Origin: an uncultured Actinomycetes bacterium
GTDB lineage: Bacteria > Actinomycetota > Thermoleophilia > UBA2241
Length of the DNA stretch: 64,000 bases
Direction of reading: 5' to 3'
NCBI GenBank assembly: GCA_963725665.1
Contig: CAVRZA010000001.1
Location: 288,001-352,000 of the forward strand
The notes below the pieces were generated by a model. It searched no databases, was not told where the DNA came from, and saw only the letters and a list, made by a program, of their open reading frames with translations. The translations under genes and the position numbers were made by a program. Positions 1-24,419 of the stretch are shown piece after piece (within the stretch, counting starts at the first letter, position 1; each line of letters opens with the position of its first letter).

Positions 1-489
1 AAGGTCCTCTTCGTGCAGATCGGGCAGGCCGGCTACGCCGACGCGGCAGGCGGCAAGCGCGTCACGCAGAGCGCCATCTCCGGCGGCGCCGACGTGGTCT
101 TCGGCATGGGGGACGGTTCGTCGTTCGGCATGATGCAGGCCGTTGAGACCGCGACGCCGCCGAGCGGCGCCGACAAGGTGTGGTTCATCGACGTCATCGG
201 CAACAAGAGCTCCCTCGACAAGAAGCACATCTACCTGTCGTCGGTCCTGTGGGACTTCACGCAGATCGACACGGAGCTCATCCAAGCGGTCCAGAACGGG
301 ACGTTCGGTCAGAAGAGCGTGTACCTGGATCTCAACAACGGCTTGGGTCTGCTGCAGACCGACCTCATTCCTGCGGATGTCTGGAGCAAGGTCGAGACCG
401 CTAAGCAGGCCATCATCGACGGCAGCATCCAGGTGCCGTTGACCACGAACATGAAGCAAGTCAAGAAGATGATCGCCTCTGGACAGTGA
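1..489 (+). CDS. BMP-family (PnrA/NupN-like) ABC transporter substrate-binding protein, 5' truncated by window edge
   Basis: Frame open from base 1. GADVVFG..G....GMMQA and WFIDV..K..SSVLWD..GTFG....L...GLGL..IIDGSIQVP match the BMP C-terminal half. Directly upstream of a Nup-type ATPase and two permeases. Confidence 0.85.
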   Translation, partial: KVLFVQIGQAGYADAAGGKRVTQSAISGGADVVFGMGDGSSFGMMQAVETATPPSGADKVWFIDVIGNKSSLDKKHIYLSSVLWDFTQIDTELIQAVQNGTFGQKSVYLDLNNGLGLLQTDLIPADVWSKVETAKQAIIDGSIQVPLTTNMKQVKKMIASGQ

Positions 490-2171
490 TCATGGCCCCG
501 TTCTCTCAAGAGGGTGACGGGGAGGGCGGGCGCGGTCTGACGACCGCGCCCGCCCTCCCCGTCGACGGGGCTGCCGCTCCCGGCGACGCCTCCGCGCAGA
601 CCATCGCCATCCAGTTCTGCGACATCACGAAAGAGTTCCCGGGGGTGCGCGCCAACGACTGCGTCAATCTCATCGTGCGGCAGGGCGAGGTGCATTGCCT
701 GCTCGGCGAGAACGGCGCCGGCAAGTCGACGCTGATGAACGTGCTGGCCGGCATCTATCAACCCGACGAAGGCACCATCCGCGTGTGCAACGAGGAGGTG
801 TGCATCAGCTGTCCGCGGGACGCGATCGACCTCGGCATCGGCATGGTGCACCAGCACAGCAGCCTGATCCCGACCTTCACGGTTCTCGAGAACCTCATGC
901 TCGGCCAGGGTGAGGGTGTGCGGCTCAGCGTCAAGAAGGCCCAAGACGGGCTCGCGAGCCTCTCGGCGACACTCGGCGTGGATGTCGACCCCGACACCGA
1001 GGTGGGACAGCTGTCGCTCGGCCAGCAGCAGCAGGTGGAGATCCTGAAGGCGCTCTGGCAGGGCTCCAAGGTCCTCATCCTCGACGAGCCGACCTCGATG
1101 TTGACGCCCAAGGGCATCGAGGATCTCGAGCGGGTCCTTCTGAGGCTCAAGCGGGAGGGCCTGGCCATCATCTTCATCACCCACAAGCTGCACGAGGCCG
1201 CCGCCATCGGCGACCGCGTCTCCGTGCTGCGTCAAGGTCGGCTGGAGGACACGATCGACAGCGAAATGATGCGGAGGCTCTCCCGCGAGGAGCTGCAGCG
1301 CATGATCGTTGATCTGATGTTCCCCGGCGAGGCCGAGAGCCTGGCCAGCGTCGCCGAGCTGCGCGACCTCGCGGAGCTGGGCGGCACGGGCAGCAAGGCG
1401 GCTATCGGGGGGCCGTTGCTGGAGCTCGACGGCGTCACTGTCGCCGGCAAGCACGGAGAGATCGGCATCGAGGAGGGCATCACGCTTACGGTGCACGCGG
1501 GCGAGGTGGTCGGCATCGCTGGCGTAGACGGCAACGGCCAGCGACCGCTGGCCGAAGCCATCGCCGGCCAGCGTTCGCTCTCCGGCGGCGATATCAGTCT
1601 CGGCGGCACCTCGATACGCAGGCTGAGCGTAGGCGCACGCCAGCGCCTCGGCTTGCGCTATGTAACCGACGATCGCTTCAACGAGGGGATTGTCGGTGCG
1701 CTCCCTGTGTCCATCAACATGGTCATGAAGAGCATCGGCATGCCGCCGTTCTGGATACACGGCCGCACGCGTCCCGCGGAGATCGATGCCAACGCCGAGA
1801 AGCTGGTCGACGAGTACAACATCATGACGCCGTCGATCCACACCCACGCAGGTTCTCTCTCGGGCGGCAACGCTCAAAAGATGGTGCTGGCGCGCGAACT
1901 GTCCTTCGACCCCAGGGCGGTGGTGTTCAACAAGCCGACCTACGGGCTAGACGTCAAGACCACGACGGCTGTACGCGCGCGAATCCGCGAATTGGTAGAC
2001 ACGGGGAAGGCCGGCGCCCTGGTCATCTCCACCGACCTTGAAGAGCTCCTGGTGCTCTGCGACCGCGTCGCGGTGCTGTCACGCGGCCGCCTCATGGGGG
2101 TCGTGCAGAACAAGCCCGGCGCGGAGCAGGAGATCGGCGCACTGATGATCGGAGGAGGGCGCGGTGAGTGA
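486..2171 (+). CDS. ABC transporter ATP-binding protein with two NBDs (nucleoside/monosaccharide CUT2 type)
   Basis: GENGAGKST Walker A, LSLGQQQ, LILDEPT; second domain GVDGNGQ, LSGGNAQK, ISTDLEE. Exact start uncertain. Confidence 0.93.
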   Translation: MIMAPFSQEGDGEGGRGLTTAPALPVDGAAAPGDASAQTIAIQFCDITKEFPGVRANDCVNLIVRQGEVHCLLGENGAGKSTLMNVLAGIYQPDEGTIRVCNEEVCISCPRDAIDLGIGMVHQHSSLIPTFTVLENLMLGQGEGVRLSVKKAQDGLASLSATLGVDVDPDTEVGQLSLGQQQQVEILKALWQGSKVLILDEPTSMLTPKGIEDLERVLLRLKREGLAIIFITHKLHEAAAIGDRVSVLRQGRLEDTIDSEMMRRLSREELQRMIVDLMFPGEAESLASVAELRDLAELGGTGSKAAIGGPLLELDGVTVAGKHGEIGIEEGITLTVHAGEVVGIAGVDGNGQRPLAEAIAGQRSLSGGDISLGGTSIRRLSVGARQRLGLRYVTDDRFNEGIVGALPVSINMVMKSIGMPPFWIHGRTRPAEIDANAEKLVDEYNIMTPSIHTHAGSLSGGNAQKMVLARELSFDPRAVVFNKPTYGLDVKTTTAVRARIRELVDTGKAGALVISTDLEELLVLCDRVAVLSRGRLMGVVQNKPGAEQEIGALMIGGGRGE

Positions 2172-3309
2172 CACCACGAACGAAGCCATCCTTGCCTTCG
2201 GTGCGCCCGCGCGACCGTCCGCGCTGCGGCGTGGGAGGAAGGCGTTCTGGCGGGCGGCCGTCCCCGTCTTCTACGGCCTCATCGCCGGCGGCGTACTGCT
2301 GCTCGTCTTGGGCAAGAACCCGGTCACCTTCTACTGGACGACACTCGAGAACGGATTGCTCACGTCGGCCGGCCTCGAGCAGACACTCATCCGCCTGGCC
2401 CCCCTGCTGTTGATGTCGGCGGGGTTCATCGTGGCCTTCCAGGCGGGACTGTGGAACATCGGCGGCGACGGTCAGTTCCTGATGGCGGCCGCATTGGTCG
2501 GCGGCCTCGGCGCGTCGATGGTGGCAGCGCTGCCTTTCTGGCTCGCGCTCGTCCTTCTCTGCATCATCGCCTTCCTGGTCGGCGCGGCTTGGACTCTCGT
2601 GCCGTCGTTCCTGAAGGCCTACTACGGCATGAACGAGATCATCACCAGCCTGATGATGGCCTACCTCGGCATCAACTTCGCCAACTTTCTGATCAAAGGT
2701 CCGTTCTTGACCGACGTGGGTTTCGTCCCACAAACGAACGTCATTCCCTTCGCGTACCTTCTGCCGTATCTACCGGGCACACGGATCCACGTGGGCATCG
2801 TCGTCGCGCTTGTCGTGCTGGGCCTTGTGCACTACATGCAGACTCGCACCGGGTACGGGCTCCGCCTGCGCATCCTGGGCGCCAACCCAAGAGCGGCAGT
2901 CCATGCCGGCATCAACGTGAAGCGTGACATCATCACTGCGTTCGCCCTGAGCGGCGGCCTCATCGGCCTAGCCGCCGCTGTCGAAGTGCTAGGCGTGTGG
3001 GGCTACGTGCGTGCTGACTGGAATCCCGCGTTCGGCATGACGCTGTTCGCGATCGTGTTCCTCGCCGGGCTCAACGTCATGGTGGTCATCCCCTTCGTGT
3101 TCTTCTTCGCCGTGATCCAGATAGGAGGCCACGAGGCCGCCCGGCAGGCGGGGTTGCCCAACGACTTCCTGTTGCTGTTGGTCGGACTGATCCTGTTCTT
3201 CATGGTGCTGACGGAGTGGGCACGCACGCGGGGATGGTTCAGCAGAAGGGGCAAGGAGGTCGCGTCGGGCGTTGCCCTCGGGCCGGAAGAGGCGGTGAGC
3301 AATGGGTAG
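2164..3309 (+). CDS. ABC transporter permease (NupB-like)
   Basis: Multi-TM; AGLWNIGGDGQ, NEIITSLM, GANPRAA..AGI motifs; overlaps the ATPase stop. Confidence 0.9.
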   Translation: MSDTTNEAILAFGAPARPSALRRGRKAFWRAAVPVFYGLIAGGVLLLVLGKNPVTFYWTTLENGLLTSAGLEQTLIRLAPLLLMSAGFIVAFQAGLWNIGGDGQFLMAAALVGGLGASMVAALPFWLALVLLCIIAFLVGAAWTLVPSFLKAYYGMNEIITSLMMAYLGINFANFLIKGPFLTDVGFVPQTNVIPFAYLLPYLPGTRIHVGIVVALVVLGLVHYMQTRTGYGLRLRILGANPRAAVHAGINVKRDIITAFALSGGLIGLAAAVEVLGVWGYVRADWNPAFGMTLFAIVFLAGLNVMVVIPFVFFFAVIQIGGHEAARQAGLPNDFLLLLVGLILFFMVLTEWARTRGWFSRRGKEVASGVALGPEEAVSNG

Positions 3310-4237
3310 CATCCTCACCGCTGACTTCGTCGCCGCCGTCATCTCGGGTGCCATCCTCGCCGGCATGCCGCTCCTCTTCGCCGCGCTCGGCGAGACCATC
3401 TCGGAGCAGGCCGGCCTGCTCAACATCGGTCTCGAGGGCATGATGCTCTTCGGCGCCTACGCCGGCTTCAACGCCGCTTACTACGGCGGTTCGTCCTGGA
3501 TCGGCTTCGTGGCGGCCATCGTCGGCGGCATGGCCGTCTCGGGGCTCATGGTCGTCTTCTGCGTGCGGATGGGGCGCGACCAGATCGTCGTCGGCATCGC
3601 CATCTTGCTCGCCATGGAGGGCCTCACCAGCCTGCTGCACCAGGTGCAGTTCGGCACGAGCTACCCGCGTCTAGGGAGTGTGCCGACCATCGCCATCCCC
3701 GGGCTCAGCAAGATCCCCGTGGTCGGGCCCAGCATCTTCACCCAGCCCCTGATCACCTACATCGGCGTCGCGCTCATCTTCGCGGTGGGCTGGATGCTCT
3801 ACCGGACCAACCTCGGTCTCAACATCAGGGCCGCAGGCTGGAAGCCGGTGGCCCTCGACAACGCCGGCGTGGACGTGCTCAAGATTCGCACGATCGCCGT
3901 TCTGGCCACGGGCGCCCTAGCCGGCCTTGGCGGCGGGTACATGGCGATCGTCGTGGCCGGGGTCTTCGTCCCGTTCATCACCGGCGGGTACGGGTTCATC
4001 GCGATCGTCATCGCCATGCTGGCCCGCGGACGCCCCGTCTGGGTGCTCATCGGCGCGCTGCTCTTCGGCGTCGCGTTGTCGATCGCCACGGCGCTGCAGC
4101 TAGTGGGCATCAACGTCTCCACCGATCTCGTGCAAATGCTGCCGTTCCTCGCCGTCATAGCCGCCCTCGCGCTGTTCGCGCGTCACACCATGCTGCCGGC
4201 GGCGCTGGCGACACCGTTCGTCAGGGGTCAGAAGTGA
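3302..4237 (+). CDS. ABC transporter permease (NupC-like)
   Basis: PLLFAALGE..SEQAGLLNIGLEGMML, G.GFIAI, QMLPF, PAALATPF motifs. Confidence 0.9.
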   Translation: MGSILTADFVAAVISGAILAGMPLLFAALGETISEQAGLLNIGLEGMMLFGAYAGFNAAYYGGSSWIGFVAAIVGGMAVSGLMVVFCVRMGRDQIVVGIAILLAMEGLTSLLHQVQFGTSYPRLGSVPTIAIPGLSKIPVVGPSIFTQPLITYIGVALIFAVGWMLYRTNLGLNIRAAGWKPVALDNAGVDVLKIRTIAVLATGALAGLGGGYMAIVVAGVFVPFITGGYGFIAIVIAMLARGRPVWVLIGALLFGVALSIATALQLVGINVSTDLVQMLPFLAVIAALALFARHTMLPAALATPFVRGQK

Positions 4238-4283
4238 GGTCGCGGCCATTAGGAGCGGCTCGACAGGAAGAGAGGTGGACGGC

Positions 4284-5465
4284 ATGAGACGATCGATCGA
4301 GTTCATGCTCACGGCGGGTCCGGTGGAGTACTCGGACAAGGTCCGCAGCGCCTTGGGCTCGCAGCTTTTGTTCGACTATTCGGAGCCCTTCTTCGAGCTC
4401 TTCCGCGACACGCAGGAGAAGTTCAAGCGGTTCTTCAAGACGACCAACGACATCGTGATGATGCAGGGGGAGGCGCTGCTCGGCCTCGAGGCCATCTCGA
4501 TCTGCGGTCTCGACGAGGGCGATGTCGTCATCAACGTCGAGAGCGGTCACTACGGCGAGGGCAACCGCTACTTCATCGAGAAGTACGGGGGCAAGGCAAT
4601 CCCGGTCGAGACCGCCTGGAACACGGTAGTCGAGCCCGAGCAGCTCGAGCCCGTGCTCAAGGCGCACCCGGAGGCGAAGATCCTCTGGCTGGTGCACTGC
4701 GAGACGCCCTGCGGGACCCAGATCGACCTCGAGGCGCTGGCGCGGCTCGGCAAGCAGTATGACAAGCTCGTGTTCGTCGACTCGGTGAGCTGCGCCGGCA
4801 GCGTCCCGGTGGAGGTCGACGCGTGGGGGATCGACATCGTCTCGGTCGGTTCCCAGAAGGTGCTGGGGGCGCCGCCGGGACTCAGCGCCATGGCGATCTC
4901 AGAGGTGGCTTGGGACCGCTTCCGCTCCGTGAAGCGTCCCAACCGCTACTCGTACACCAGCATCCTCGACTGGAAGGAGATGTGGCTCGAGAAGGGGTTC
5001 TGGCCCTACACCGCATCTGTGGCCGATGTGGGCGCCCTGAACGCCGCTGTGAGTGAATACCTCGAGCTCGGGCACGAAGAGAACTTCCGCCGCTACGCGG
5101 AGGTGGGCCGCGCCACGCGGCGCGCGGTCGAAGCGATGGGCCTCGATGTGTGGGCCGACACCGAAGAGCATGCCTGCAACATCGTCACCGCCGTCGCCGT
5201 TTCCGACGGCATCGACGACGAGGAGCTGCGGCGGCGCATGGTGGACCGGTTCGGCGTGTTGATCTCGGGCAGCCTCTTCAACACGCCGATCTACGGCAAG
5301 TTAGTGCGTATTGGTCACATGGGCAGGACCTGCAGCCCCTCGTACGCGCTCACCGCTGTCACGGCCCTGGGGCACTGTCTGCGGGAGCTCGGCCACGACG
5401 TCGACATGAGCGCCGGGGTCGAAGCTTTTCTCGGAGCCCTCGATCCACTGGAGGTCGCCACGTGA
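4284..5465 (+). CDS. ppaT: Class V aminotransferase, pyridoxamine-pyruvate aminotransferase-like
   Basis: LTAGPV, LFDY, QGEALLGLEA, LKAHPE, catalytic Lys in GSQKVLGAPPGL, SILDW...W, PYTASV, GKLVRIGHMG.T..P.YA..A.TALG. These blocks follow the Mesorhizobium loti PPAT sequence as I recall it. Class V assignment is secure; the PPAT subfamily needs alignment confirmation. Confidence 0.75.
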   Translation: MRRSIEFMLTAGPVEYSDKVRSALGSQLLFDYSEPFFELFRDTQEKFKRFFKTTNDIVMMQGEALLGLEAISICGLDEGDVVINVESGHYGEGNRYFIEKYGGKAIPVETAWNTVVEPEQLEPVLKAHPEAKILWLVHCETPCGTQIDLEALARLGKQYDKLVFVDSVSCAGSVPVEVDAWGIDIVSVGSQKVLGAPPGLSAMAISEVAWDRFRSVKRPNRYSYTSILDWKEMWLEKGFWPYTASVADVGALNAAVSEYLELGHEENFRRYAEVGRATRRAVEAMGLDVWADTEEHACNIVTAVAVSDGIDDEELRRRMVDRFGVLISGSLFNTPIYGKLVRIGHMGRTCSPSYALTAVTALGHCLRELGHDVDMSAGVEAFLGALDPLEVAT

Positions 5466-5872
5466 GCTACATCGCCTTCCACAAGGAGAAGTGTGTCTAC
5501 TGCGACCTCTGTGCGGGCGTCTGCTCGCTCAGCAAGCTGGAACGGGTCCAGCCACGCGGGGCCTGCATCACGATCGACCGCGAGCCAGGCGATGCCTTCG
5601 GAGAGCTGCGCTGTTCGGTCTGCGACATGACCCACGATCGCGCCTGCGTCGACGCTTGTCCCGAAGAGGCCCTTGTGTGGGATGCAAAGGCTGGGGTCGT
5701 GCGCTTCGTGGCAGAGCTCTGCACGATGTGCGAGAGCTGCCTTGACGCCTGCCCGAACGTCCATCTCGACGCCGTGTCTGAGCGCATCATGATCTGCGAT
5801 CTCTGCAACGGCGATCCGTTGTGCGTGCAGTGGTGCCCAGAGGGCGCCCTGACCTGGGAGGGGCGGGCATGA
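5462..5872 (+). CDS. 4Fe-4S dicluster (multi-cluster) electron-transfer protein, AOR partner
   Basis: CVYCDLCAGVC, CSVC..CVDACP, CTMCESCLDACP, CDLC..DPLCVQWCP; GTGA and ATGA overlaps with both neighbours. Confidence 0.9.
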   Translation: MSYIAFHKEKCVYCDLCAGVCSLSKLERVQPRGACITIDREPGDAFGELRCSVCDMTHDRACVDACPEEALVWDAKAGVVRFVAELCTMCESCLDACPNVHLDAVSERIMICDLCNGDPLCVQWCPEGALTWEGRA

Positions 5873-7683
5873 AGTACGGGGGCTACATGGGCAAGTTCCT
5901 TACGGTCGACCTTACGAGCGGCGCCCACGGCGAGCTCCCGGTCGACGAAGAGCTGGCCGAGAAGTACCTCGGCGGCCGTGGCTTCATCGCCAAGCTTCTC
6001 TACAGCCGTCTGCCGCGTCACATCGACCCATTGGCTCCCGAGAACGAGATCATCTTCGCGACGGGGCCGGCCACGGGGACGATGATCCCGACGGCGAGCC
6101 GCATCGCAGTCGGGGTCAAGAGCCCGCTCACAGGGACGATCTCGGCGAGCTACATGGGTGGCCACTTCGGCCCGGAGCTCAAGTACGCTGGCTGGGACGG
6201 GATCATCGTCACCGGGGTCTCGGCCGAGCCGGTCTACCTGGTCGTCGATGGGTCCAAGGTCGAGCTGCGTGACGCCGCCCACCTGTGGGGAAAGGACACC
6301 GAAGAGACGCAGGCCATCCTGCGGCGCGATCTGGGGGACGACTTTCGCACCGGGGCCATCGGGCAGGCCGGCGAGAACCAGGTCCTCTATGCCAACTTCC
6401 TCCACCTGCAGCACGCCGCCGGCAGAGGTGGTCCGGGCGCCGTGTTTGGCGCCAAGCGTCTGAAGGCGGTCGCCGTGCGCGGCCGCGGCGGGGTCTCGGT
6501 GGCCTCGCCGGCCGCCGAGTACATACCGGCCTGCAAAGAGCTCCACGACATCATCATGGAGAACCCGGTCAGGCCGGCGTTCCGCTGGGCGGGTACGACC
6601 GGCATGCTGCCCTTTGTCAATGAGGCCGTCGGTCTGCCTTACAGGAACCACCAGGACGACAAAGCTCCCGACGTGAGCGCGATCCACAACGAGGAGATCG
6701 CGAAGTTCGTGCAGCGCTACGAGTCCTGCAGCGGCTGCAACGTGATCTGCGGATCCGTGGTCGAGTTCGAACGTCAGGGTCGTGCCTACCGCACGGAGCG
6801 CATCGAGCACGAATCCGTGTGGGCCCTCGGCCCCAACTGCGGCGTTGTCGATCTGCCGGCGATTATGGAGGCCGCCCTCGTCTGCGACCGCCTCGGCATC
6901 GACACGATGACTGCCGGAGGCGCGATCTCCTGGGCCATGGAGATGACTCAGCGCGGCGAGCTTACGAAGGAAGACACAGGCGGTCTCGAGTTCAGCTTTG
7001 GCAACGCCGACGTGCTCCGTGAGGCGATCCTCAAGATTGGCGCGCGTGACGGCTTCGGCGATCTTCTGGCGCTGGGGTCACGCGGAGCAGCGCGGGCGTT
7101 CGGCAGGGGCGAGGAGTACGCCATGCAGGTGAAGGGCCTCGAGCTGTCGGCATACGCGCCACGCGCATTCACGGGGATGGGCCTCAGCTTTGCTACGACA
7201 GGACGCGGCGCGGATCACAACAAGGCCTTCACGGTCGCGGCCGAGTTTCTGGGCGTCTTGGGTGACTACGACCGCTATTCGCTCGAGGGCAAGCCTGCAC
7301 TGGTCAAGAGCATGCAGGACAGCACGGCGATCATCGATTCTCTGATCATGTGCATGTTCACGGTCGATCTCGGCATCAGCGTCGAGCTGTACGCCCGTTG
7401 CGCGAGTCTGCCGACGGGCATGAACATCACCGCCGAGGACGTGTACACGATCGGCGAACGGATCAACGCGGTGGAGCGCTTGTTCAACATCGAAGAGGGG
7501 TTCTCCAGGGCGGACGACGTGTTGCCGTCACGTTTCGCCGACGAAGCTGCTCCTTCCGACCCTGGTGCCCACACCCTCGATGTCACCGCAGTCATGGACG
7601 AGTACTACGAGGAACGCGGCTGGGATCGCGATGGCGTACCGACTCCCGCCCTTCTCTCGAAGCTTGGCATCCAGTCTCACTGA
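5869..7683 (+). CDS. aor: Aldehyde:ferredoxin oxidoreductase family protein (W-pterin), copy 1
   Basis: YLGGRG, KSPLTG, GG.FGPELK.AG.D, AGRGG.GAV.G.K.LKAV, CSGCNVIC, DRLGIDT, RGADH, LP.RF, YY..RGWD..GVP. Confidence 0.93.
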   Translation: MKYGGYMGKFLTVDLTSGAHGELPVDEELAEKYLGGRGFIAKLLYSRLPRHIDPLAPENEIIFATGPATGTMIPTASRIAVGVKSPLTGTISASYMGGHFGPELKYAGWDGIIVTGVSAEPVYLVVDGSKVELRDAAHLWGKDTEETQAILRRDLGDDFRTGAIGQAGENQVLYANFLHLQHAAGRGGPGAVFGAKRLKAVAVRGRGGVSVASPAAEYIPACKELHDIIMENPVRPAFRWAGTTGMLPFVNEAVGLPYRNHQDDKAPDVSAIHNEEIAKFVQRYESCSGCNVICGSVVEFERQGRAYRTERIEHESVWALGPNCGVVDLPAIMEAALVCDRLGIDTMTAGGAISWAMEMTQRGELTKEDTGGLEFSFGNADVLREAILKIGARDGFGDLLALGSRGAARAFGRGEEYAMQVKGLELSAYAPRAFTGMGLSFATTGRGADHNKAFTVAAEFLGVLGDYDRYSLEGKPALVKSMQDSTAIIDSLIMCMFTVDLGISVELYARCASLPTGMNITAEDVYTIGERINAVERLFNIEEGFSRADDVLPSRFADEAAPSDPGAHTLDVTAVMDEYYEERGWDRDGVPTPALLSKLGIQSH

Positions 7684-7695
7684 GAGGAGTGTGCG

Positions 7696-8785: not shown

Positions 8786-9042
8786 CAAGACACGACTCAG
8801 CAGCAGTGCAGATCACAGCCATCCTCTTCGGCACATACGCGGATCTCTTGCCGTCCTCGCGGCAGGGACGGACGATCGTCGACGTGCCTGCAGGCAGCAC
8901 AGTGGAGGACGTTCTTGACGCGCTCACCGTTCCCGCCGGCGCGCGGAGTTTCCTGACGCTGAACGGCGAGCGTGTCACTCCAGAGGACCCAGTACACGAT
9001 GGCGCGGAGCTGCGGGTGATCGTGCCTCTAGGGGGTGGGTGA
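8782..9042 (+). CDS. moaD: MoaD/ThiS family sulfur carrier
   Basis: About 86 aa, ubiquitin-like pattern (LF..Y.DLLP...G.TV.D.L..L..NG..L.DG), C-terminal GGG; commonly found beside AOR genes. Confidence 0.85.
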   Translation: MTRHDSAAVQITAILFGTYADLLPSSRQGRTIVDVPAGSTVEDVLDALTVPAGARSFLTLNGERVTPEDPVHDGAELRVIVPLGGG

Positions 9043-10012: not shown

Positions 10013-10099
10013 AGCGGTGACGCCGGTGCACGTCAACGACGGCAGGAACAGGGACGGGATCCGCGGGGATGCCGCGACCGTCCCGCGGAGGAGGGTCTA

Positions 10100-11251: not shown

Positions 11252-11254
11252 CGG

Positions 11255-14769: not shown

Positions 14770-14805
14770 GAGCACAGAGCACTGAGACGAGAAGGGGAGA
14801 GTTAG

Positions 14806-16029: not shown

Positions 16030-16057
16030 TGATCGGCTGGGGAGAGGGGCGGCGTCG

Positions 16058-16941
16058 ATGAAGGCTTTCGACTACGTTCGCCCGTCATCTGTCGAAGAGG
16101 CCTGCTCGGCCCTGACGGCCCCCGACGGTCAGGTGAAGGTCCTGGCCGGCGGCACCGACGTCCTCGTCCAGATGAGGCTCGGGACCCTGCAGCCGCAGAC
16201 GCTGGTCAGCCTGAGGGACGTCCCCGACCTTGCCATCGTGCGCCTCGAGGACGACGGCGCGCTGACTATCGGCGCCGCCACCACACTCGGGGCGGTCGAG
16301 AACGCGCCTGCGGTGCGGGGCAGCTTCCCGGCGATCGGCGAGGCGGCCGCGTGCATCGGCTCGGTGCAAGTGCGCAGCCGGGCGACGGTGGGCGGCAACC
16401 TCTGCAACGCCGCCCCATCGGCCGACATGGCGCCCATCCTTCTCGTCTACGAGGCCGAAGCGATCATCACCGATGGGAGGGCGGAGCGCAGCGTGCCCTT
16501 GGAGAAGTTCTTCGCCGGGCCGGGGGAGACGGTGCTCGGACCGGGGGAGCTGCTCAAGGCCCTGCGTGTGCCCCCCCTCCCTCGCGAGCAGCCACGCCAA
16601 GTACTACAAGACCTTCCGCTCCGCCATGGACTGCTGCACCGTAGGCGTCGCCATCGCCGCGGTCTTCACGCCGGGCACGACGAGCCTCAGCGACGTCCGC
16701 CTGGCACTCGGGGCCGTGGCGCCCACGCCCGTCCGTGCAAGGCAGGCGGAGAGGATGGCGCTCGATCAGCCGCTCGACGAGGGGCTGATCGAGCGCGTGA
16801 GCGCCCAGGCCGCCGCGGAGGCCTGGCCGATCAGCGACGTGCGCGCCTCGGCCGAGTACCGTACGACGCTCGTGGAGGTGCTCACGAGGAGAGCCCTGAA
16901 GGCGCGCTCTCTCCTGGGCGGAGCAAGGAGGGCGAGGGTGA
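16058..16941 (+). CDS. Xanthine dehydrogenase family FAD-binding subunit (frameshifted)
   Basis: [60 protein letters not shown]. Frameshift in the C-run near 16570-16590; probable true stop is the TGA at 16939-16941. Confidence 0.85.
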
Positions 16942-17421
16942 AGCGGGAGCTGCGCATCACGGTGAACGGCGACGAGCATCACCTGCTCGTCGACACGCGG
17001 CGCACGCTGCTCGAGGTCATCCGCGACGAGATCGGCCTGACCGGCACCAAGAACGGCTGCGGCGCCGGCGAGTGCGGCGCCTGCACGGTGCTGGTCGACG
17101 GTCTGCCGGTCAACTCCTGCCTGATGCTGGCCGACGAGGCCGACGGCCGGAGGTGACCACCATCGAGGGCCTCGCGGCCGGCGGCGAGCTCGCACCCCAT
17201 CCAGCGAGGCGTTCGTCGAGCACGGCGCCATCCAGTGCGGCTTCTGCACGCCCGGCATGGTCCTGTCCGCCAAGGCCCTGCTCGACCGCAACCCCGACCC
17301 GACGCGGGAGGAGATCCTGCAGGGGCTCTGGGGCAACCTCTGCCGCTGCACCGGCTACGTGAAGATCGTCGACGCCGTCGAAGCGGCGCGCGACATGCTC
17401 GCGGAGGTGGGGTCGCGATGA
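16938..17421 (+). CDS. Xanthine dehydrogenase family 2Fe-2S subunit (frameshifted)
   Basis: AAGGAGG RBS then [49 protein letters not shown] spread over three frames. Confidence 0.88.
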
Positions 17422-19737
17422 CGACGACGATAGAGGAGAAGCAGAGGCAGACCAGCGTCATCGGGCAACGGCTGCCGCGCATCGACGCCATCCCGAAGGT
17501 CTCCGGCGAGGCGCAGTACACCGTCGACCTCAACATGCCGCGGCATGCTCGTCGGCAAGATCCTGCGCAGCCCGCACCCGCACGCCCTGATCAGGTCGAT
17601 CGACACCTCGCTGGCGAGGCAGGTCAAGGGCGTGCGGGCGGTCATCACCGCCGACGACGTGCCCGACAACCTCTTCAGCTTCTTCCAGTGGCTGGCCGAC
17701 AAGCACATCCTCTGCATGGACAAGGTGCGCTACGTCGGCGACGAGGTGGCCGCGGTGGCCGCCGTCGACGAGGACACGGCCGAGGAGGCGATCTCGCCTG
17801 ATCAAGGTCGAGTACGAGGCGCTGCCGGCGGTCTTCGAGCTCGAAGAGGCGCATGCGACCCGGCGCGCCGCTGGTGCACGACGACAAGGAGAGCAACACG
17901 ACCTGGAGCGTCGACCGTCTCTTCGGCGACCCCGACACGGCGCTGCGCCGAGTGCGACTACGTCGTCGAGGGCACCTACGTCACCCATCAGGTGGCGCAC
18001 ACCTGCCTCGAGGTCGTCCAACTGCATCGCCAGGTGGGACAACAAGGACCGCCTCACCATCTGGACCAACGCCCAGGCACCGCACACGCAGCGACAGGAG
18101 GTGGCGCGCGTCCTGGGCATCCCGCTGCGCAACGTGCGCGTCATCAACTCGCACATGGGCGGCGGCTTCGGGTCGAAGCTGGTGATGGACATGAAGCTGC
18201 CCATCGCCGCCGTGCTGTCGAGGATCACCGGCCGCCCGGTGCGCATCGTCAACACCCGCAGCGAGGAGTTCATCGACGGCGCAAGACGCGCTACCCGTAC
18301 ACGATGCACCTGAAGACCGGGGCCACGAAGGACGGCCGCATCCTCGTGCGCGACCTGGAGCTGATCGGCGACGCCGGCGCCTACCACGACAAGGGGCCGG
18401 CCACCGTCAACTTCTCGAGCATGATGTTCGGCACCCTCTACAACGTGCCCAACATGCGCTTCCACGGCCAGCTCGTCTACACCAACAAGGAGATGGGCAC
18501 GGCGTTCCGCGGCTTCGGCAACCCGCAGGTGACGTTCGCCACCGAGTCGCAGATCGACGAGCTCGCCGAGAAGATGGGCATGGACCCGCTCGAGCTGCGC
18601 CTCAAGAACGCCAATCAGCCCATGCAGACCACGTTCACCGGCGCCGAGATCTCGGGCTGCGCCATGACGGAGTGCATGCTCGCCGCGGCCGAGGGCATCG
18701 GCTGGGAGGAGAAGAGGAAGCCGGCCGGGAAGAAGCCGCTCCGCGGCGTGGGCCTGGCCAACATGGTCCACACCGGAGGCGGCGGGCGCTTCTACGGCTA
18801 CAACTCGGCTGAGGCCTTCATCAAGCTCTCGGACGAGGGCACGGTGACGCTCATCACCTCCGCCCTCGACATGGGCCAGGGCGCCCACACCGCGATGGCG
18901 CAGATCGCCGCCGAGGAGCTCGGCGTGCCGCTGAGCGACATCAACGTCCTCTCCCACGACACCGACCTTACGCCCGTACGACCTGGGCTCCTGGGGGAGT
19001 CGGGCCAGCTTCATGAACGGGAACGCCGTCCTCGCGGCCGCCAGGGACGCGAAGCGCAACCTGGTCGAGGCCGCGGCCGAGATGCTCGAGGCCGATCCCC
19101 GAGGACATCCTCATCCAGGACGGCAAGATCTGGGTGAAGGGCTCGGCCGAGAAGCACGATCTCTCCGAGATCGTCGAGCCACGCCGTCAACGAGCACGGC
19201 GTCACCATCTCGGGCACCGGTCGCTTCGTCGACAGGCTGCCCGAGGGCTACACGATCCCGACCGCGTTCGCCAAGAACATCCCCTACTTCTCGTTCGGCA
19301 CGCAGGCGGCCGAGGTCGAGATCGACCCCGAGACGGGCCAGGTCCGGGTGCTCAAGGTGGTGGCGGCGCACGAGACGGGCACGACCATCAACCAGACCAT
19401 GGCCGAGGGGCAGATCGAGGGCGCCGTCGCACAGGGGATCGGCTTCGCCCTCATGGAGGAGCTCGTGCACGAGAACGGCAGGGTCGTGAACGACCGCTTC
19501 CTCGACTACAAGATCCCCAACATCGGCGACATGCCCGAGATCAAGGCGATCTGCGTCGAGAGCGTTGGCACGAACGGGCCGTTCGGCGCCAAGGGCATCG
19601 GCGAGCCGGGTCTGGTGCCCACGGCTCCCGCCATCGCCAACGCCGTCTTCGACGCCATCGGCGTGCGCTTCCACGAGCTGCCCATCACCCGGGAGAGAGT
19701 CCTCGAGGCCCTGAAGGAACGGCGAGCGGCGACGTAG
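17418..19737 (+). CDS. Xanthine dehydrogenase family molybdopterin-binding (large) subunit (multiple frameshifts)
   Basis: [67 protein letters not shown]...[13 protein letters not shown] (catalytic Glu), PITRE. Confidence 0.9.
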
Positions 19738-19751
19738 ACGCACGAGGGGAC

Positions 19752-20620
19752 ATGGCCGGAGTGGCGCTGCGGGCCGTCGCCTGCGACACACTCGCCGACG
19801 CCCTCGGTCTGGGGAGTCGGGAGATGGTGGCGCTGGTCGGTGGCGGAGGCAAGACCAGCGCCGTCCGCCTGCTCGCCGGCGAGCTGAGCGTCGAGGGGCA
19901 GGCGCGTGCTGGTGGCCACGACGACGGCCATGTTCCTGCGCGAGATGACCGCCGTCGGCCCGGTGGTGATGGGCGCCGACGGCGACGGCGCTGACAGACG
20001 GATTGAGGAAGGCTCTTGGCGAAGGGACGGACGGCTTCGGTGGCGCGTTGCCGCGGTCGAGGGCGGCAAGGTGGCCGGTCTGTCTCCGGCCGCGTCGACG
20101 AGCTGTGGGCCGAGGGTCTGGTCGATCACCTGATCGTCGAGGCCGACGGAAGCCGGGGCAGGTCGCTGAAGGCCTTCGGACCTCACGAGCCGCAGGTGCC
20201 GGTCACGGCCACCACGATCGTGCAGGTGGCCGGACTGGACGCCCTCGGGGCGCCGCTCACCGACGAGCACGTGCACCGGTCGGAGACGCTCGCGGCGCTG
20301 CTCGCGATACCGCTCGGCTCCACGGTGACGGCGCGCGTCTTCGCCGACAGCCTGCGGGTGCAGGTGCGGCGACTGCGGCGAGAAGGGAGGGTGGCTCGCC
20401 TGGCCGCCCTGCTGAACAAGGCCGACGGCCCGGCCGAGCAGGCGTCGGGGCTGGCCGTCGCGGAAGAGTTGCTGGAGGGCGCTGCTCGGTGCCGACGGTG
20501 TGTCGACCGGCGGTGGCCGCCGGTGGCCCGACGCTCTCGTCATCGCGAGCCTGCGGGAGCGGCGCTTCGCCCGTGTGTCGACGACGGAGGGGCGGGCGTA
20601 GTGGCCGGCGACGAGGCGCG
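19752..20620 (+). CDS. yqeC: Selenium cofactor protein YqeC (frameshifted; may be fused to the downstream MocA domain)
   Basis: VALVGGGGKTS, VLVATTT.M, IVEADGSRGRSLKA...HEP.VP, AGLDALG.PL....VHR, LLNKAD. End boundary approximate. Confidence 0.75.
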
Positions 20621-20634
20621 CGAAGCGAGGCCGG

Positions 20635-21229
20635 CGCGGCGTCTCCGTCGCGGCCGTCGTGCTGGCAGCCGGGCGCGCCACGCGCATGGGAGGGCAGAAG
20701 CTCCTGCTGCCGCTCGCGGGGCGGCCGCTGGTGCAGTGGGTCGTCGACGCGGCTCTCGGCTCCAAGGCCACCGAGACGATCGTCGTCGTCGGCCACGAGG
20801 CCGAGCGGGTGGCGGAGGTCCTCGAGGGCCGACCGGTGACCGTGGTCGTCAACTCGGACTACGAAGAAGGGCTTGAGCACCTCGCTCCAGGCGGGGGTGC
20901 GGGCGACGGGCACGGCCTGCGACGCGGCGGTCTTCTTGCTCGGCGACCAGCCGTTCGTCGACTCCGCGCTGTGTCGATCGCCTGATCGACCGGTTCGCGG
21001 AGTCGGGCGTGGAGGTCGTCCGGCCCGCTGATAGGCGATCGGCCGGCCCACCCGGTGCTGATGAGCGCCGGCTGTTCCCCGAGATCCTCGAGCAGCGCGG
21101 CGACGTGGGGGGCCGCGAGATCATCGAGCGGCATCCCGAGCGGGTCTGTCTGGTCCCGGTCGACGACCCCGCGTCGCCCAGGACATCGACTCGATGGAAG
21201 ACTACGAGGCGGCGAGGGAGAGCGCATGA
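20635..21229 (+). CDS. mocA: Molybdenum cofactor cytidylyltransferase (MocA/YgfJ-like NTP transferase), frameshifted
   Basis: AAVVLAAG.ATRMG..KLLLPL.GRPL, N.DY.EG.STSL..G, LGDQP, GHPV, GDVGGR, DID...DY; stop overlaps the xdhC ATG. Confidence 0.8.
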
Positions 21230-22070
21230 GGGAAGCGGACTCTACGCGAGGGTGGCCGAGCTCACCGGACAGGGACGCCGTTTCGTGCTGGCCACCATCA
21301 CCGACGTCAAGGGCTCGAGCCCCCGCGGCGTGGGCACGAAGATGCTGGTCATCAGGGACGGCTCGACCGTCGAGACCATCGGCGGGGGCGTGCTCGAGAG
21401 GCAGGCGATCGCGGACGCGCTCGCCTGTCTTGCCTCGGGGCGTCTCCCGCAGCGAACGCTACCAGTTGCGCGAGCAGGGCGACCACGCGCTCGGGGGACT
21501 GTGCGGGGGGGAGGTCACCGTCTTCTTCGAGCCGCACGTCCCCGCAGCACGCTCCTCATCGTCGGGCGCGGGCCACGTAGGCCAGGCGCTGTGCCGGTTC
21601 GCGGCGCTGCTCGACTACCGGGTGGTCGTCCTCGACTCCCGGGAGGACATGGTCATCGCGCGAGCGCTTCCCGAGGCCGAGCGAGCGCATCTGCGGCGAC
21701 CCGGCACGGACGGCCGAGCTGTTCGACATCGACGAGGACACGCACGTCGTCATCGTCACGCACGGTCACGTGCACGACCAGCGGCGCTGCGCTCGGTCAT
21801 CGACTCGCCGGCCGCCTACATCGGCATGATCGGCAGCGCGCAACAAGGTGCGGACGATCTTCGCCCGGCTTCGGGAGGACGGGCGTGGCCGCCGAGCTGC
21901 TCGACCGGGTCCACTCACCCATCGGCCTCGACATCGGCGCCGAGACGCCGGCCGAGCTCGCCCTCTGCATCATGGCCGAGATCGTGGCCGACCGGTACGG
22001 CAAGCTGGCGGCCGCGCACGCCGCGCTCGGCCGCCGGAGCGGGCGGCGGCCGAGGAGTCCCGCGCCGTGA
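21226..22070 (+). CDS. xdhC: XdhC/CoxI family molybdenum hydroxylase maturation chaperone (frameshifted)
   Basis: LATI....GSSPR..G.KM, TIGGG.LE, LCGG.V.VF.EP, GAGHVGQAL, VTHGH.HD, YIGMIGS, SPIGLDIGAETPAELALCI.AEI. Confidence 0.85.
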
Positions 22071-23033
22071 TCCCGCCGCGTCCAGCGGCCTCGACGACGC
22101 CGGCCGGCCGCGTGGCGCTCATCAAGGGTGCCGGCGACCTGGCCACCGGGGTGGCCTCTGCGCCTCCTGCGCTCGGGGTTCGCCGTGGTCATGACCGAGA
22201 TCGCCGCAGCCCACCGTCGTGCGACGGACGGTGGCCTTCGCCGAGGCCGTGTACGAGGGCCGCGACGGTGGTCGAAGGGGTGGAGGGAGTGAGGGTCGAG
22301 GCGGCCGAGCCGGATCGACGACCTCCTGGTCCGCGAAGCGGTGCCCGTGGTCGTCGATCCCGAGGCGGCGCGTGCTGCGCGAGCTCAGGCCCGCCCTGCT
22401 CGTCGACGCCATCGTGGCCAAGCGCAACCTGGGCACGCGCTGGGCGACGCCCCGGCGGTGGTCGCCCTGGGGCCGGGGTTCGTCGCCGGGCGCGACGTGC
22501 ACGCCGTGATCGAGACCAAGCGCGGTCACACGCTAGGCCGGGTCATCTTCGAGGGAGAGGCCCTGCCCAACACCGGCATCCCCGGAGAGGTGGGCGGCTT
22601 CGCGGAGGAGCGTGTGCTGCGTGCTCCCGGCGCGGGGGTCTTTCGCGGCGCGCGCGAGATCGGCGATCGGGTGAGTCGGGATGAGATCGTCGGCCACGTC
22701 GACGATCTCCCGGTCCCCGCGCGCCTGGACGGCGTGCTGCGTGGCTTGCTTCACTCGGGTGTCGCGGTGGGCGCCGGCTTCAAGGTGGGCGACGTCGATC
22801 CCCGCGCGCAGCGTGAGCACTGTTTCGTCGTCTCAGACAAGGCGCTGGCCATCGCTGGTGGAGTGCTCGAGGCCGCGTGCACCCTCCTCGGCGGCGTGCG
22901 CTTTGCGATGACAGAGACGCGACTGTATGAACGTGACGACAGAGACGCGACGGTGAGAGACGTGGCCGTCAGAGAGGCGACAGTGGGAGACGCGACAGAG
23001 ATCGACCGGAGGTCCGAAGGAGGTAGGCAGTGA
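22067..23033 (+). CDS. yqeB: Selenium-dependent molybdenum hydroxylase system protein YqeB (frameshifted)
   Basis: IKGAGDLATGVA, RRTVAFAEAVY.G, VDAI.AKRNLGT, ALGPGF.AGRD.HAVIET.RGH.LGRVI..G.A.PNTGIPG, ERVLRAP, G.LRGL, KVGDVDPR, SDKA.AI.GGVLEA. Confidence 0.88.
22913..23000 (+). repeat. Degenerate 15-bp tandem repeat (AGAGACGCGACRGTG-like) encoding an RDATV-type tail of YqeB
   Basis: Units at 22941, 22956, 22971 and 22986, with a related copy at 22913. Confidence 0.6.
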
Positions 23034-24031
23034 AGTCCTATAGCACACTCATCAAGGGCGCACGCCTTGTCGTGGAGCGTTGCTTCGCTGTGAAGGAGGG
23101 CGACGCGTTGCTCATCATCGCCGACGAGGACCACGAACGTGAGGCCAAGGCCATCGCCGGGGTGGCGTACTCGCACGGCGCGTACCCCACGATCGCCGAC
23201 GTCTCGCACCATGTGAGCGCCGCGCTGGCGTCGATGGCCGTTGCCATGGAGCCGTCCAAGACGGTGGCGGCCGCCATGAAGGCCTCCGACGTGATCATCA
23301 TCACGACCAACCTCGAGTGGGCGAACCGCTTCGCCCACGTGAACCCGGTCGCCGAGAGTTGCGCCCTGGGTGCCAAGATCGGGTCGGTCGAGGAGGGCAT
23401 GGCGGACTGGGACCTCACCTTCGACGACATCGACGCGATCGTGGGTCGGGCCGAGAAGCTCATGGCGGCCATGGAGGGCGCTCGGTGGTGTCGCGTCACG
23501 AACCCGTCGGGCACCGACGTGCGCATCTGCATCGAAGATCGCCCGCCGCTCAAGGTTGTGCCCATCAAGGGCGCCGGTGAGATGATGGGTCCAGTGCCGC
23601 TGTGGGGCGAGGTCGCCTACGCGGCGCGCGAGGACAAGACCGTCGGCACCATCGTGGTCGACGGCATCATGCTCGGCGTCGGGGTCTACGGGTCGCTCAA
23701 GGAGCCCATCACGTGGACCATCGAGGACGGACGCGCCGTGAAGATCGAGGGCGGGCCCGAGGCGGAGCGCCTCAGGAGCGTCATCGCCGATTCCGACGAC
23801 ATGGCCGACGTGGTCGCCGAGTTCGCCATCGGCACGAGCCACAAGGAGGTCTTCGGCTCACCCTCCGAGAAGGGCATGATGGGCACCACGCACTTCGCCC
23901 TGGGCGACAACTCGCACGCCTATCCGGGAGGACAGAGCCGCAGCCGGTTGCACCTCGACGGCTCGGTACGCGACGTGACCATCGAGGTCGACGGGAAGGT
24001 CGTCATCAAGGACGGTGCCCTTGTCATCTGA
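23030..24031 (+). CDS. AmpS/peptidase M29-like (aminopeptidase T family) metallohydrolase
   Basis: EP...VAAAM..SDV, GTD......R, P.GEV..A......GTIVVDG, I.GG.EA..L, AEFAIG, EK...GT.HFALGDN, GG...S.LHLDG. Confidence 0.8.
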   Translation: MKSYSTLIKGARLVVERCFAVKEGDALLIIADEDHEREAKAIAGVAYSHGAYPTIADVSHHVSAALASMAVAMEPSKTVAAAMKASDVIIITTNLEWANRFAHVNPVAESCALGAKIGSVEEGMADWDLTFDDIDAIVGRAEKLMAAMEGARWCRVTNPSGTDVRICIEDRPPLKVVPIKGAGEMMGPVPLWGEVAYAAREDKTVGTIVVDGIMLGVGVYGSLKEPITWTIEDGRAVKIEGGPEAERLRSVIADSDDMADVVAEFAIGTSHKEVFGSPSEKGMMGTTHFALGDNSHAYPGGQSRSRLHLDGSVRDVTIEVDGKVVIKDGALVI

Positions 24032-24032
24032 G

Positions 24033-24419
24033 ATGTCGGAGAGAGTAGTCGTGGTCGGGCTCGACGCCGGCAAGCGCAGCGACATCCCCGGCGGGAGCTG
24101 GGTCTGCGAACTGGTCTCGGGACCGCGCACGGGAGCGAGCGCCAGCATGCTGGGCTTCTCGAGCTGGGCTCCGGGAGCGGACACCAAGCAGCTCGTGCAC
24201 GAGGTCGACGAGCTGTGCTACATCGTGAGCGGCGAGGGCAAGCTCTCCGTGGGCGAGGAAGGCGTGCCGTTTCGCGCCGGGGAGGCGGTGTTCATCCCGG
24301 CCGGCGTGCCGCACGGCGTGGTGAACGACTCGACGGCCGAGATGACCATGGTCTACGTGTTCTCGCACCCCGAGTACCCGCCCACGCGTGAGGCCACCGA
24401 GGCTGAGAGAGGCGCGTGA
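24033..24419 (+). CDS. Cupin domain protein
   Basis: H...E..YIVSGEG and GEAVFIPAGVPHGV.N cupin motifs. Confidence 0.85.
   Translation: MSERVVVVGLDAGKRSDIPGGSWVCELVSGPRTGASASMLGFSSWAPGADTKQLVHEVDELCYIVSGEGKLSVGEEGVPFRAGEAVFIPAGVPHGVVNDSTAEMTMVYVFSHPEYPPTREATEAERGA

Follow-up and report, generated by a model that had tools for sequence, protein, structure and literature searches.

A predicted vitamin B6 catabolic gene cluster with aldehyde:ferredoxin oxidoreductases, a UbiD-type decarboxylase, and a molybdenum hydroxylase in an uncultured Thermoleophilia bacterium

Gene content and preservation of the cluster

The window analyzed here is a stretch of 64,000 nucleotides from the genome of an uncultured bacterium of the Thermoleophilia (GenBank assembly GCA_963725665.1, here G000; 12 contigs, 3.73 Mb, ∼70% G+C), located on its first contig (G000:C1:288001-352000). 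Positions 1-24419 of the window harbor a cluster of genes on the plus strand which, judging from comparative genomics, is a fairly probable operon for the uptake and catabolism of the vitamin B6 vitamers pyridoxamine, pyridoxal, and pyridoxine under the control of a GntR/UTRA regulator. When the open reading frames (ORFs) were scanned with Pfam and NCBIfam and complemented with the open-frame orthologues of related genomes, 21-22 co-oriented genes were counted, so the cluster of about 22 genes proposed in the first-pass annotation of this DNA is real. The gene overlaps it had described were also found, as start/stop overlaps of 4-17 nucleotides at 486/489, 2164/2171, 3302/3309, 9035/9042, 14806/14813, 23030/23033, and 24015/24031, and a Pfam scan of 30 ORF translations detected, as claimed, neither a flavin monooxygenase nor a Rieske domain. 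The whole stretch is collinear, at 75-79% nucleotide identity, in four genomes (G005, G006, G012, and G013) that belong to the same family but to two other genera, which indicates that the cluster is more than a chance arrangement. Upstream, synteny with these relatives stops at the gene for the BMP-family protein, which starts ∼520 nucleotides before the window. The genes are as follows:

1-489, plus strand: BMP-family ABC substrate-binding protein, 3′ part (Pfam Bmp; gene start near G000:C1:287479)
486-2171, plus strand: ABC transporter ATPase (Pfam ABC_tran in two stretches, that is, two ABC domains)
2164-3309 and 3302-4237, plus strand: two ABC permeases (Pfam BPD_transp_2)
4275-5465, plus strand: class-V aminotransferase resembling pyridoxamine-pyruvate transaminase (PPAT; NF046070, PDB 2z9u, tree)
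5821-7683, plus strand: aldehyde:ferredoxin oxidoreductase 1 (AOR1) of the tungstopterin family (Pfam AFOR_N and AFOR_C, full length)
7696-8722, plus strand: Zn-dependent alcohol dehydrogenase (Zn-ADH; Pfam ADH_N), frame break near 8197
8827-9042, plus strand: small ThiS/MoaD-like ORF between Zn-ADH and the regulator (Pfam ThiS, E = 3.8e-7)
9035-10012, plus strand: GntR/UTRA transcriptional regulator (Pfam GntR and UTRA; syntenic in all four relatives)
10100-11251, plus strand: iron-type alcohol dehydrogenase (Fe-ADH; Pfam Fe-ADH and ADH_Fe_C)
11255-13150, plus strand: aldehyde:ferredoxin oxidoreductase 2 (AOR2; Pfam AFOR_N and AFOR_C, full length)
13147-14813, plus strand: UbiD-family decarboxylase, dependent on prenylated flavin mononucleotide (prFMN); frame-broken by at least seven single-base insertions
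14806-16029, plus strand: PreA-like flavin/Fe-S reductase, intact (Pfam DHO_dh; ferredoxin-like C-terminal part)
16058-16950 (end approximate), plus strand: FAD subunit of a molybdenum (Mo) hydroxylase, frame-broken (Pfam FAD_binding_5; indels near 16570 and 16904)
16955-17420 (approximate, mapped from C12:2822-3274), plus strand: [2Fe-2S] subunit of the Mo hydroxylase, frame-broken (indels 17147-17415)
17440-19740 (approximate), plus strand: molybdopterin subunit of the Mo hydroxylase (Mo subunit), frame-broken (Pfam, tblastn with the relatives' proteins)
19800-22910 (approximate), plus strand: YqeC, MocA, and long-form YqeB, all frame-broken (Pfam fragments YqeC, XdhC_CoxI, XdhC_C)
23030-24031, plus strand: M29/NicX-fold metalloenzyme, intact (model fold, profile matches)
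24015-24419, plus strand: small single-domain cupin, intact (Pfam Cupin_2)
25134-26762, minus strand: M20-family amidohydrolase, possibly associated with the cluster (Pfam Peptidase_M20)

The M20 gene occupies the same position on another contig of the assembly, C12 (91% amino acid identity), and weak nucleotide similarity to it is present downstream of the G006 and G013 clusters. In G012 (L021/L022), ∼4.8 kb without counterpart in the window or in the other relatives lie between AOR2 and UbiD.

An intact copy of the cluster, as assumed earlier, is not what the window contains: frame breaks relative to all four relatives affect Zn-ADH, UbiD, every one of the hydroxylase subunits, YqeC, MocA, and YqeB. 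The breaks were mapped by tracking the reading frame through the G+C content of third codon positions (GC3), by tblastn with the relatives' proteins, and by parsing the gaps of pairwise BLAST alignments against the four relatives. Zn-ADH carries a single frame shift near 8197 (tblastn with the G013 orthologue switches frame at 8195-8199). Between 13425 and 22441, ∼35 single-base indels are spread over UbiD, the hydroxylase subunits, YqeC, MocA, and YqeB; nearly all are +1 insertions outside homopolymers, and the PreA-like gene in the middle of this stretch contains none. Contig C12 (15.5 kb; L112:1-15491) duplicates window positions 14136-29695 and has open frames for PreA, the FAD and Mo subunits, YqeC, MocA, YqeB, and the M29-like protein, and one shift in the cupin. 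Identity between C12 and the window varies as a mosaic from 75% to 99.6%, with 75-89% in the hydroxylase and maturation genes and ∼99% in the M29-like gene. Either C12 comes from a variant strain and was binned together with the genome, or it represents a genuine second copy.

Similarity to vitamin B6 systems and distribution of related loci

The assignment of the cluster to vitamin B6 is based on the likeness of its aminotransferase to PPAT, on the type of its BMP protein, and on the gene context in which PPAT-like genes are found elsewhere. For the aminotransferase, NF046070 (pyridoxamine-pyruvate transaminase) is the top NCBIfam family (332 bits versus 167 for the next), and PPAT from Mesorhizobium loti (PDB 2z9u) is its best solved relative (261 bits versus 139 for the next entry; PucG, PDB 3isl, scored 138). 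In a tree of 30 rows, which contains no characterized AGT, PucG, or SgaA sequence, the protein falls into a clade of 28 rows (support 96/91) together with the annotated PPAT of Rhizobium daejeonense, and the two AGT-like paralogues of the genome fall outside this clade. Family, structure, and tree thus bear out the earlier proposal that the enzyme groups with PPAT and not with AGT-type enzymes. The residues aligned with K197, D171, T146, E68, Y95, and R345 of M. loti PPAT are identical, and R336 is replaced by Leu beside an indel; these seven positions we take to form the active site of the M. loti enzyme. The genome encodes another PPAT-like paralogue, with 81% identity to the window protein, at G000:C1:154785-155951 (L111:4786-5952); in the tree, it is nearer than the window gene to the cluster gene of L030, another Thermoleophilia locus. 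This second locus was considered as a B6-type cluster and dismissed, its neighbors being SBP_bac_5, a GntR/FCD regulator, a further class-V aminotransferase, and an ODP-type protein of β-lactamase fold.

The full BMP protein (L110) matched a single family at E ≤ 1e-30, NF047927 ("putative B6 ABC transporter SBP"; 362 bits). Scores of the corresponding proteins were 379 in G012, 392 in L091 (the reference cluster of the comparison below), and 450 in the R. daejeonense control. Compared with the transporter of the PPAT plasmid cluster of R. daejeonense, BMP is 41%, the ATPase 49%, and the permeases 48% and 55% identical. Both results agree with the importer being of the B6-associated BMP type, as had been suggested. 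The R. daejeonense locus itself (L029; NZ_CP048425.1 118794-149933) has annotated genes for a 2,5-dihydroxypyridine dioxygenase, an HpaB-like hydroxylase, two amidases, and a GMC oxidoreductase, and may represent another variant of B6 or pyridine catabolism.

Scanning one genome per species with a PPAT-like profile, and considering flanks of up to 10 kb, yielded 80 loci from many phyla. BMP was present in 53 of them, a Mo-hydroxylase subunit in 46, and an M29-like gene in 23; 12 contained no cluster gene. The 23 loci with an M29-like gene nearly always encoded a cupin (22), a class-II-aldolase-type protein (AldoII; 21), and an LLM oxidoreductase (20) as well. Clusters combining PPAT, BMP, Mo hydroxylase, M29-like protein, and cupin occur in Actinomycetota, Chloroflexota, Dormibacterota, and others (L091, L103, L044, L105). 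Within L091, the same module is accompanied by a 4-pyridoxolactonase (389 bits; cut-off 325) and a pyridoxal 4-dehydrogenase of the short-chain dehydrogenase/reductase (SDR) family (381 bits; cut-off 325), as well as by an FHMPC-dehydrogenase-like gene (398 bits, below the cut-off of 500) and a class-II-aldolase-type gene. In other phyla, the genes for Mo hydroxylase, M29-like protein, and cupin, to which a role late in the pathway had been ascribed, hence adjoin B6-catabolic genes that score above their cut-offs.

Clusters of the L091 type share with the window the PPAT-like gene, the BMP-ABC importer, the three-subunit Mo hydroxylase, the M29-like protein (47-52% amino acid identity), the cupin (33-47%), and often Zn-ADH (50-52%). 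They differ in carrying SDR pyridoxal 4-dehydrogenase and 4-pyridoxolactonase, an FHMPC-dehydrogenase-like gene, AldoII, and LLM where the window lineage has AOR1, Fe-ADH, AOR2, UbiD, and PreA. AldoII and UbiD were never encountered together (0 of 80 loci), nor were LLM and PreA (0 of 80). This mutually exclusive replacement fits the assignment of M. loti pathway steps to AOR, ADH, and UbiD that had been proposed from the window. The form with AOR, UbiD, and PreA was found in Thermoleophilia (L030-L033, L035, and L055) and in one metagenome-assembled genome of SAR324 (L058), the latter combining AOR, UbiD, PreA, M29-like protein, cupin, and hydroxylase with a PPAT-like gene, a ferredoxin, and an FHMPC-dehydrogenase-like gene (340 bits). 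Among 40 relatives, exactly the same six contained a high-identity aminotransferase and a high-identity M29-like protein, a result in favor of the first-pass reading by the tests it had set for itself. YqeB and YqeC did not exceed the match thresholds in flanks of the L091 type, except for one YqeC match of 31% in L079. No description of the widespread L091-type clusters was found in the literature that was searched.

Predicted enzymes and proposed route

Both AORs match the AFOR_N profile from position 1 to 198 of 199 and the AFOR_C profile from 2 to 385 of 385, which places them in the family over their full length, and both are conserved in the clusters of all relatives. With regard to the alcohol dehydrogenases, the intact Zn-ADH of G013 carries ADH_N and ADH_zinc_N. 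The earlier count of exactly two ADHs is correct for the window, but Zn-ADH is missing from the clusters of two of the four relatives (G006 and G012); given this variability, the fixed scheme of one ADH and one AOR for each hydroxymethyl arm is not supported. The intact UbiD orthologue of G006 scored 257 bits with TIGR00148 (cut-off 244.85), and its best PDB matches were 6h6x and 6h6v (222 bits versus 142 for the next). According to the accessible part of the source (PMC8988006), the 6H6V structure is that of PtHmfF, whose substrate is furan dicarboxylic acid. The genome contains two matches to the Flavoprotein family (UbiX or CoaBC), one of them in a frame of 213 amino acids. A furan (hydroxymethylfurfural, HMF) pathway, brought up by the HmfF-like UbiD, was rejected given the B6 markers and because neither a CoA ligase nor a hydratase was found.

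As the hydroxylase genes of the window are frame-broken, their intact counterparts were considered. In G006, the FAD subunit also has CO_deh_flav_C, and the Mo protein has Ald_Xan_dh_C, MoCoBD_1, and MoCoBD_2. The best PDB match of the C12 Mo subunit is the α subunit of 4-hydroxybenzoyl-CoA reductase (499 bits), and two chains of the Eubacterium-type nicotinate dehydrogenase (PDB 3hrd) match its two halves with 294 and 222 bits. By these scores, the Mo subunit appears about equally close to 4-hydroxybenzoyl-CoA reductase and to the paired nicotinate dehydrogenase chains. The intact G006 maturation proteins scored above their cut-offs, YqeC with 153 (TIGR03172, 73), MocA with 187 (TIGR03310, 186.45), and YqeB with 369 bits (TIGR03309, 220). 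A gene for SelD is also present in the genome (G000:C11:541083-541916; 334 bits, cut-off 125); the single in-frame TGA it contains agrees with a selenophosphate synthetase that carries selenocysteine. YqeB, YqeC, and MocA thus stand beside an enzyme of the xanthine dehydrogenase (XDH) family in a lineage with SelD, the arrangement of a selenium-type Mo hydroxylase, the window copies being frame-broken; from the maturation genes, the hydroxylase is predicted to depend on selenium. The presence of YqeB, YqeC, MocA, and SelD favors a nicotinate-dehydrogenase-like hydroxylation beside the ring nitrogen. Reductive dehydroxylation by the Mo enzyme was given low weight in view of YqeB and YqeC and of the FAD subunit, which is closer to XdhB (235 bits) than to the β subunit of 4-hydroxybenzoyl-CoA reductase (128 bits). 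YqeB comes in two lengths: a long form with an XdhC-like N-terminus (window 21229-22114) is encoded in the window, G005, and C12, and a short form, ∼0.8 kb less, in G013 and G006. The PreA-like protein scored 219 bits with NF006183, which is below the cut-off of 335; its best PDB match is dihydropyrimidine dehydrogenase, and no PreT-like gene was seen in Pfam scans of the ORFs of 1-24419.

The structural model of the M29-like protein (pLDDT 86) was closest to NicX in a Foldseek search (TM 0.76, E = 7.5e-21), followed by M29 aminopeptidases (TM 0.63-0.69). The previous label of an M29 hydrolase therefore holds only in part: the fold is closest to that of the NicX dioxygenase, but only two of the four iron ligands of NicX are present, and the profile match to PepS is the stronger one. 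As far as the available part of the source (PMC7910607) states, Fe(II) in NicX is bound by His265, Ser302, His318, and Asp320. In all eight family members aligned, His318 and Asp320 are kept, and Glu and Ala stand at the positions of His265 and Ser302, respectively. The family profile matches PepS at 5e-6 and NicX at 5e-3. Residues E194, E264, H288, H308, and D310 are invariant in the family, with Glu264 aligned to the Glu of the "GECAL" motif of PepS; this Glu/Glu/His/His/Asp set presumably resembles the carboxylate-rich metal site of M29 aminopeptidases. Pfam M29 (PF02073) itself matches residues 6-63 alone (31.5 bits, cut-off 27). As two NicX ligands are replaced, the residue set is M29-like, and the match to PepS is stronger than that to NicX, the enzyme is judged somewhat more likely to be a hydrolase than a dioxygenase. 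In the cupin, an alignment reading indicates that His, Glu, and His are kept across the two cupin motifs, and the protein could bind iron.

The families are those found in the scans above; from them, we infer the order and chemistry of the steps from AOR1 to ring opening. The vitamer would be taken up by the BMP-type ABC importer, and pyridoxamine would be converted to pyridoxal by the PPAT-like transaminase. AOR1 would oxidize the 4′-aldehyde to 4-pyridoxate, Fe-ADH (together with Zn-ADH where present) would oxidize the 5′-alcohol, and AOR2 would convert the resulting aldehyde to the 4,5-dicarboxylate, from which UbiD would take off one carboxyl group. In this scheme, AOR1 would take the part that the SDR dehydrogenase and the lactonase play in other clusters, AOR2 that of FHMPC dehydrogenase, and UbiD that of the aldolase-type decarboxylase. 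The Mo hydroxylase, possibly of the selenium type, would then place a water-derived hydroxyl group onto the free ring carbon beside the nitrogen, and the PreA-like reductase, the M29/NicX-fold metalloenzyme, and the cupin would reduce, open, and process the ring. Reduction by the PreA-like protein followed by hydrolysis by the M29-like protein would parallel nicotinate fermentation.

Several known systems share parts of this logic. Aerobic B6 pathway I of M. loti and Pseudomonas MA-1 proceeds via PPAT, pyridoxal 4-dehydrogenase, 4-pyridoxolactonase, 4-pyridoxate dehydrogenase, FHMPC dehydrogenase, HMPDC decarboxylase, MHPC oxygenase, and AAMS amidohydrolase. Like this pathway, the cluster would involve oxidations to a dicarboxylate followed by decarboxylation, and like the R. 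daejeonense cluster it combines a PPAT-type transaminase with a B6-type BMP ABC importer and a GntR regulator. Scans of the ORFs in 1-24419 revealed no SDR dehydrogenase, lactonase, 3HCDH-type dehydrogenase, AldoII-type decarboxylase, flavin oxygenase, or α/β-hydrolase; unlike in M. loti, two AORs, Fe- and Zn-ADH, UbiD, the Mo hydroxylase, and the PreA-like, M29/NicX-fold, and cupin proteins are in their place. Eubacterium barkeri ferments nicotinate by means of a Se-Mo nicotinate dehydrogenase, 6-hydroxynicotinate reductase, and enamidase. In the proposed route, too, an XDH-family enzyme would attach a water-derived hydroxyl group beside the ring nitrogen before the ring is reduced and hydrolytically opened, but the Mo subunit of the cluster is a single chain, its reductase is PreA-like, and its candidate hydrolase has the M29/NicX fold instead of belonging to the amidohydrolase superfamily like enamidase. 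In Cupriavidus basilensis, the HMF/furfural pathway leads by oxidation to 2,5-furandicarboxylate, which is decarboxylated by HmfF/HmfG before the Mo hydroxylase HmfABC acts. Common to both would be two arms oxidized to a heteroaromatic dicarboxylate, a UbiD-type decarboxylation (with HmfF as the closest solved structure), and a Mo hydroxylase; unlike the HMF pathway, the cluster has a PPAT-like transaminase and a B6-type importer, and the CoA ligase and hydratase were not detected. Finally, the M29-like protein shares fold and HxD motif with NicX and with the M29 aminopeptidases PepS, AmpS, and AmpT, but differs from NicX in the positions of His265 and Ser302 and from the aminopeptidases in being ∼80 residues shorter and in matching Pfam M29 with its N-terminal 58 residues alone.

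Alternative explanations and implications

A number of observations weigh against the assignment to vitamin B6 or against parts of the proposed route. The aminotransferase and the BMP protein remain below the equivalog cut-offs of their families (600 for NF046070 and 400 for NF047927), the latter model is itself a "putative" assignment, and the aminotransferase clade of the window sits on a long stem branch (0.98). Among the NF046070 controls, R. daejeonense PPAT scored 645, the members from L091, L044, L055, and L058 scored 389-454, and the paralogue of the genome itself scored 330; as all non-proteobacterial members range between 330 and 454, including those from clearly B6-type clusters, the shortfall is lineage-wide. 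With 15 AFOR_C matches in the genome, 13 of them outside the cluster, the AORs are less specific to it than they look. For the Mo subunit, the highest-scoring single PDB match is a reductive dehydroxylase, and PreA-like proteins are known above all for reducing pyrimidines. Moreover, Mo subunits of one cluster type share only 34-35% identity with those of the other, so the two may not catalyze the same reaction. The locus counts overstate independence because the loci are phylogenetically related, so they are descriptive and not statistical. To these points, the eight frame-broken genes of the window have to be added.

With respect to the substrate, a different N-heterocycle with hydroxymethyl or aminomethyl groups, such as the pyrimidine moiety of thiamine, a pterin, or a plant or microbial B6 analogue, for which the PPAT-like and BMP proteins would have been re-specialized, is decidedly unlikely. 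It would account for both B6 markers falling short of their cut-offs, for the long stem branch, and for the similarity of the PreA-like protein to dihydropyrimidine dehydrogenase, and terms for UbiD and Mo hydroxylase co-occur in the accessible part of a paper on pterin/lumazine degradation (PMC12391406). However, sister clusters with the same module contain 4-pyridoxolactonase and pyridoxal 4-dehydrogenase above their cut-offs, the AOR-type cluster of SAR324 contains an FHMPC-dehydrogenase-like gene, and the two AORs present in all relatives fit a substrate with two oxidizable arms. Even less credit, to the point of being highly improbable, is given to a cluster for purines, pyrimidines, or nucleosides of the kind found in the ygeW-ygfU/xdhD region of Escherichia coli, in which BMP would import nucleosides and the Se-Mo hydroxylase would act on purines. 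YqeB, YqeC, and MocA are presumably features of that region, as are an XDH-family enzyme, a PreA-like protein, and an M20 peptidase, and the BMP family includes nucleoside binders (its Pfam name being "PnrA-like"); against this stand the match of the BMP protein to the B6-type model alone, the aminotransferase being PPAT-like and not PucG-like (261 versus 138 bits), and the lack of hydantoinase, carbamoyltransferase, and carbamate kinase domains in the Pfam scans of the ORFs. Furthermore, we know of no role for AOR, ADH, or UbiD in purine catabolism.

If B6 is the substrate, its ring might still be opened with O2, the M29/NicX-fold protein or the cupin acting as a non-heme iron dioxygenase on a Mo-hydroxylase product of the 2,5-dihydroxypyridine type, which would make the operon a micro-oxic hybrid. 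This we regard as a possible but rather doubtful variant. The M29-like model comes closest in fold to NicX; C6 hydroxylation of the B6 ring would, on chemical grounds, give the para-dihydroxy pattern that NicX cleaves (reaction as given in the available part of PMC7910607); the cupin retains His/Glu/His; and the pair of M29-like protein and cupin is also found in clusters of lineages that appear aerobic judging by their names. In addition, the genome encodes two terminal oxidases, the heme-copper oxidase COX1 and cytochrome bd. The loss of half of the NicX ligands, the invariant E194, E264, H288, H308, and D310, and the preference of the profile for PepS argue against O2-dependent opening, and AORs and selenium-type hydroxylase systems are typical of anoxic metabolism. 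The oxygen independence proposed in the first-pass annotation is thus a plausible hypothesis, with the two oxidases, the NicX fold, and the cupin motif standing against it. A further explanation concerns the window copy rather than the substrate. It could be a decaying, non-functional remnant in which UbiD, the hydroxylase, and the maturation genes are pseudogenes, so that function would be supplied by the C12 copy or by nothing. The restriction of the ∼35 indels to certain genes, sparing PreA, M29-like, and cupin, and the open-frame duplicate on C12 would be accounted for in this way. Nevertheless, decay is unlikely, as nearly all indels are +1 and outside homopolymers, those parts of the window UbiD that remain in frame retain 81-84% identity to G006, as intact genes do, and nucleotide identity to the relatives is not reduced in the broken part. 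Several of the inserted bases are also missing from short related contigs of public wetland and sediment runs (X1-X4, with 27, 36, 150, and 1 pieces at ≥99% likeness and the remainder at 90-99%; each run contained ≤0.15 of the sampled words, and none was shown to be the source sample). About one tenth of the 5-kb bins of the genome have as many GC3 frame switches as the cluster bins (22 and 17, close to the 90th percentile), a census that does not separate artefact from decay. Another AOR, on C3 (e.g., C3:131322-132163), is split into two adjacent frames, which suggests frame errors elsewhere in the assembly too, and C12 itself is shifted once, in the cupin. We therefore hold, with good confidence, that the frame breaks in the window are assembly artefacts of a mixed-strain region.

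To our knowledge, B6 catabolism is known from two aerobic pathways only, in both of which the ring is opened by flavin oxygenases. The earlier statement that no anaerobic counterpart has been described is in agreement with the literature as far as it was accessible (journal coverage being incomplete, and including one preprint on B6 catabolites), in which no anaerobic B6 pathway and none based on AOR, UbiD, or Mo hydroxylase was found. It is tentatively proposed that several phyla share an undescribed, oxygenase-free opening of the B6 ring by a water-dependent Mo hydroxylase, an LLM or PreA reductase, an M29/NicX-fold metallohydrolase, and a cupin, and that the entire pathway would be fully O2-independent in Thermoleophilia and SAR324, with tungsten AORs, a prFMN decarboxylase, and a selenium-matured hydroxylase replacing all upper enzymes of the M. 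loti pathway. The gene-for-gene pattern of replacement yields a testable substrate prediction for each enzyme. If the cluster works in the predicted way, it would explain how a vitamin is recycled where oxygen is scarce, as in wetlands and sediments, extend the substrate range of tungsten AORs, UbiD enzymes, and selenium-dependent Mo hydroxylases, and provide a function for the widespread M29/NicX-fold family and its partner cupin.

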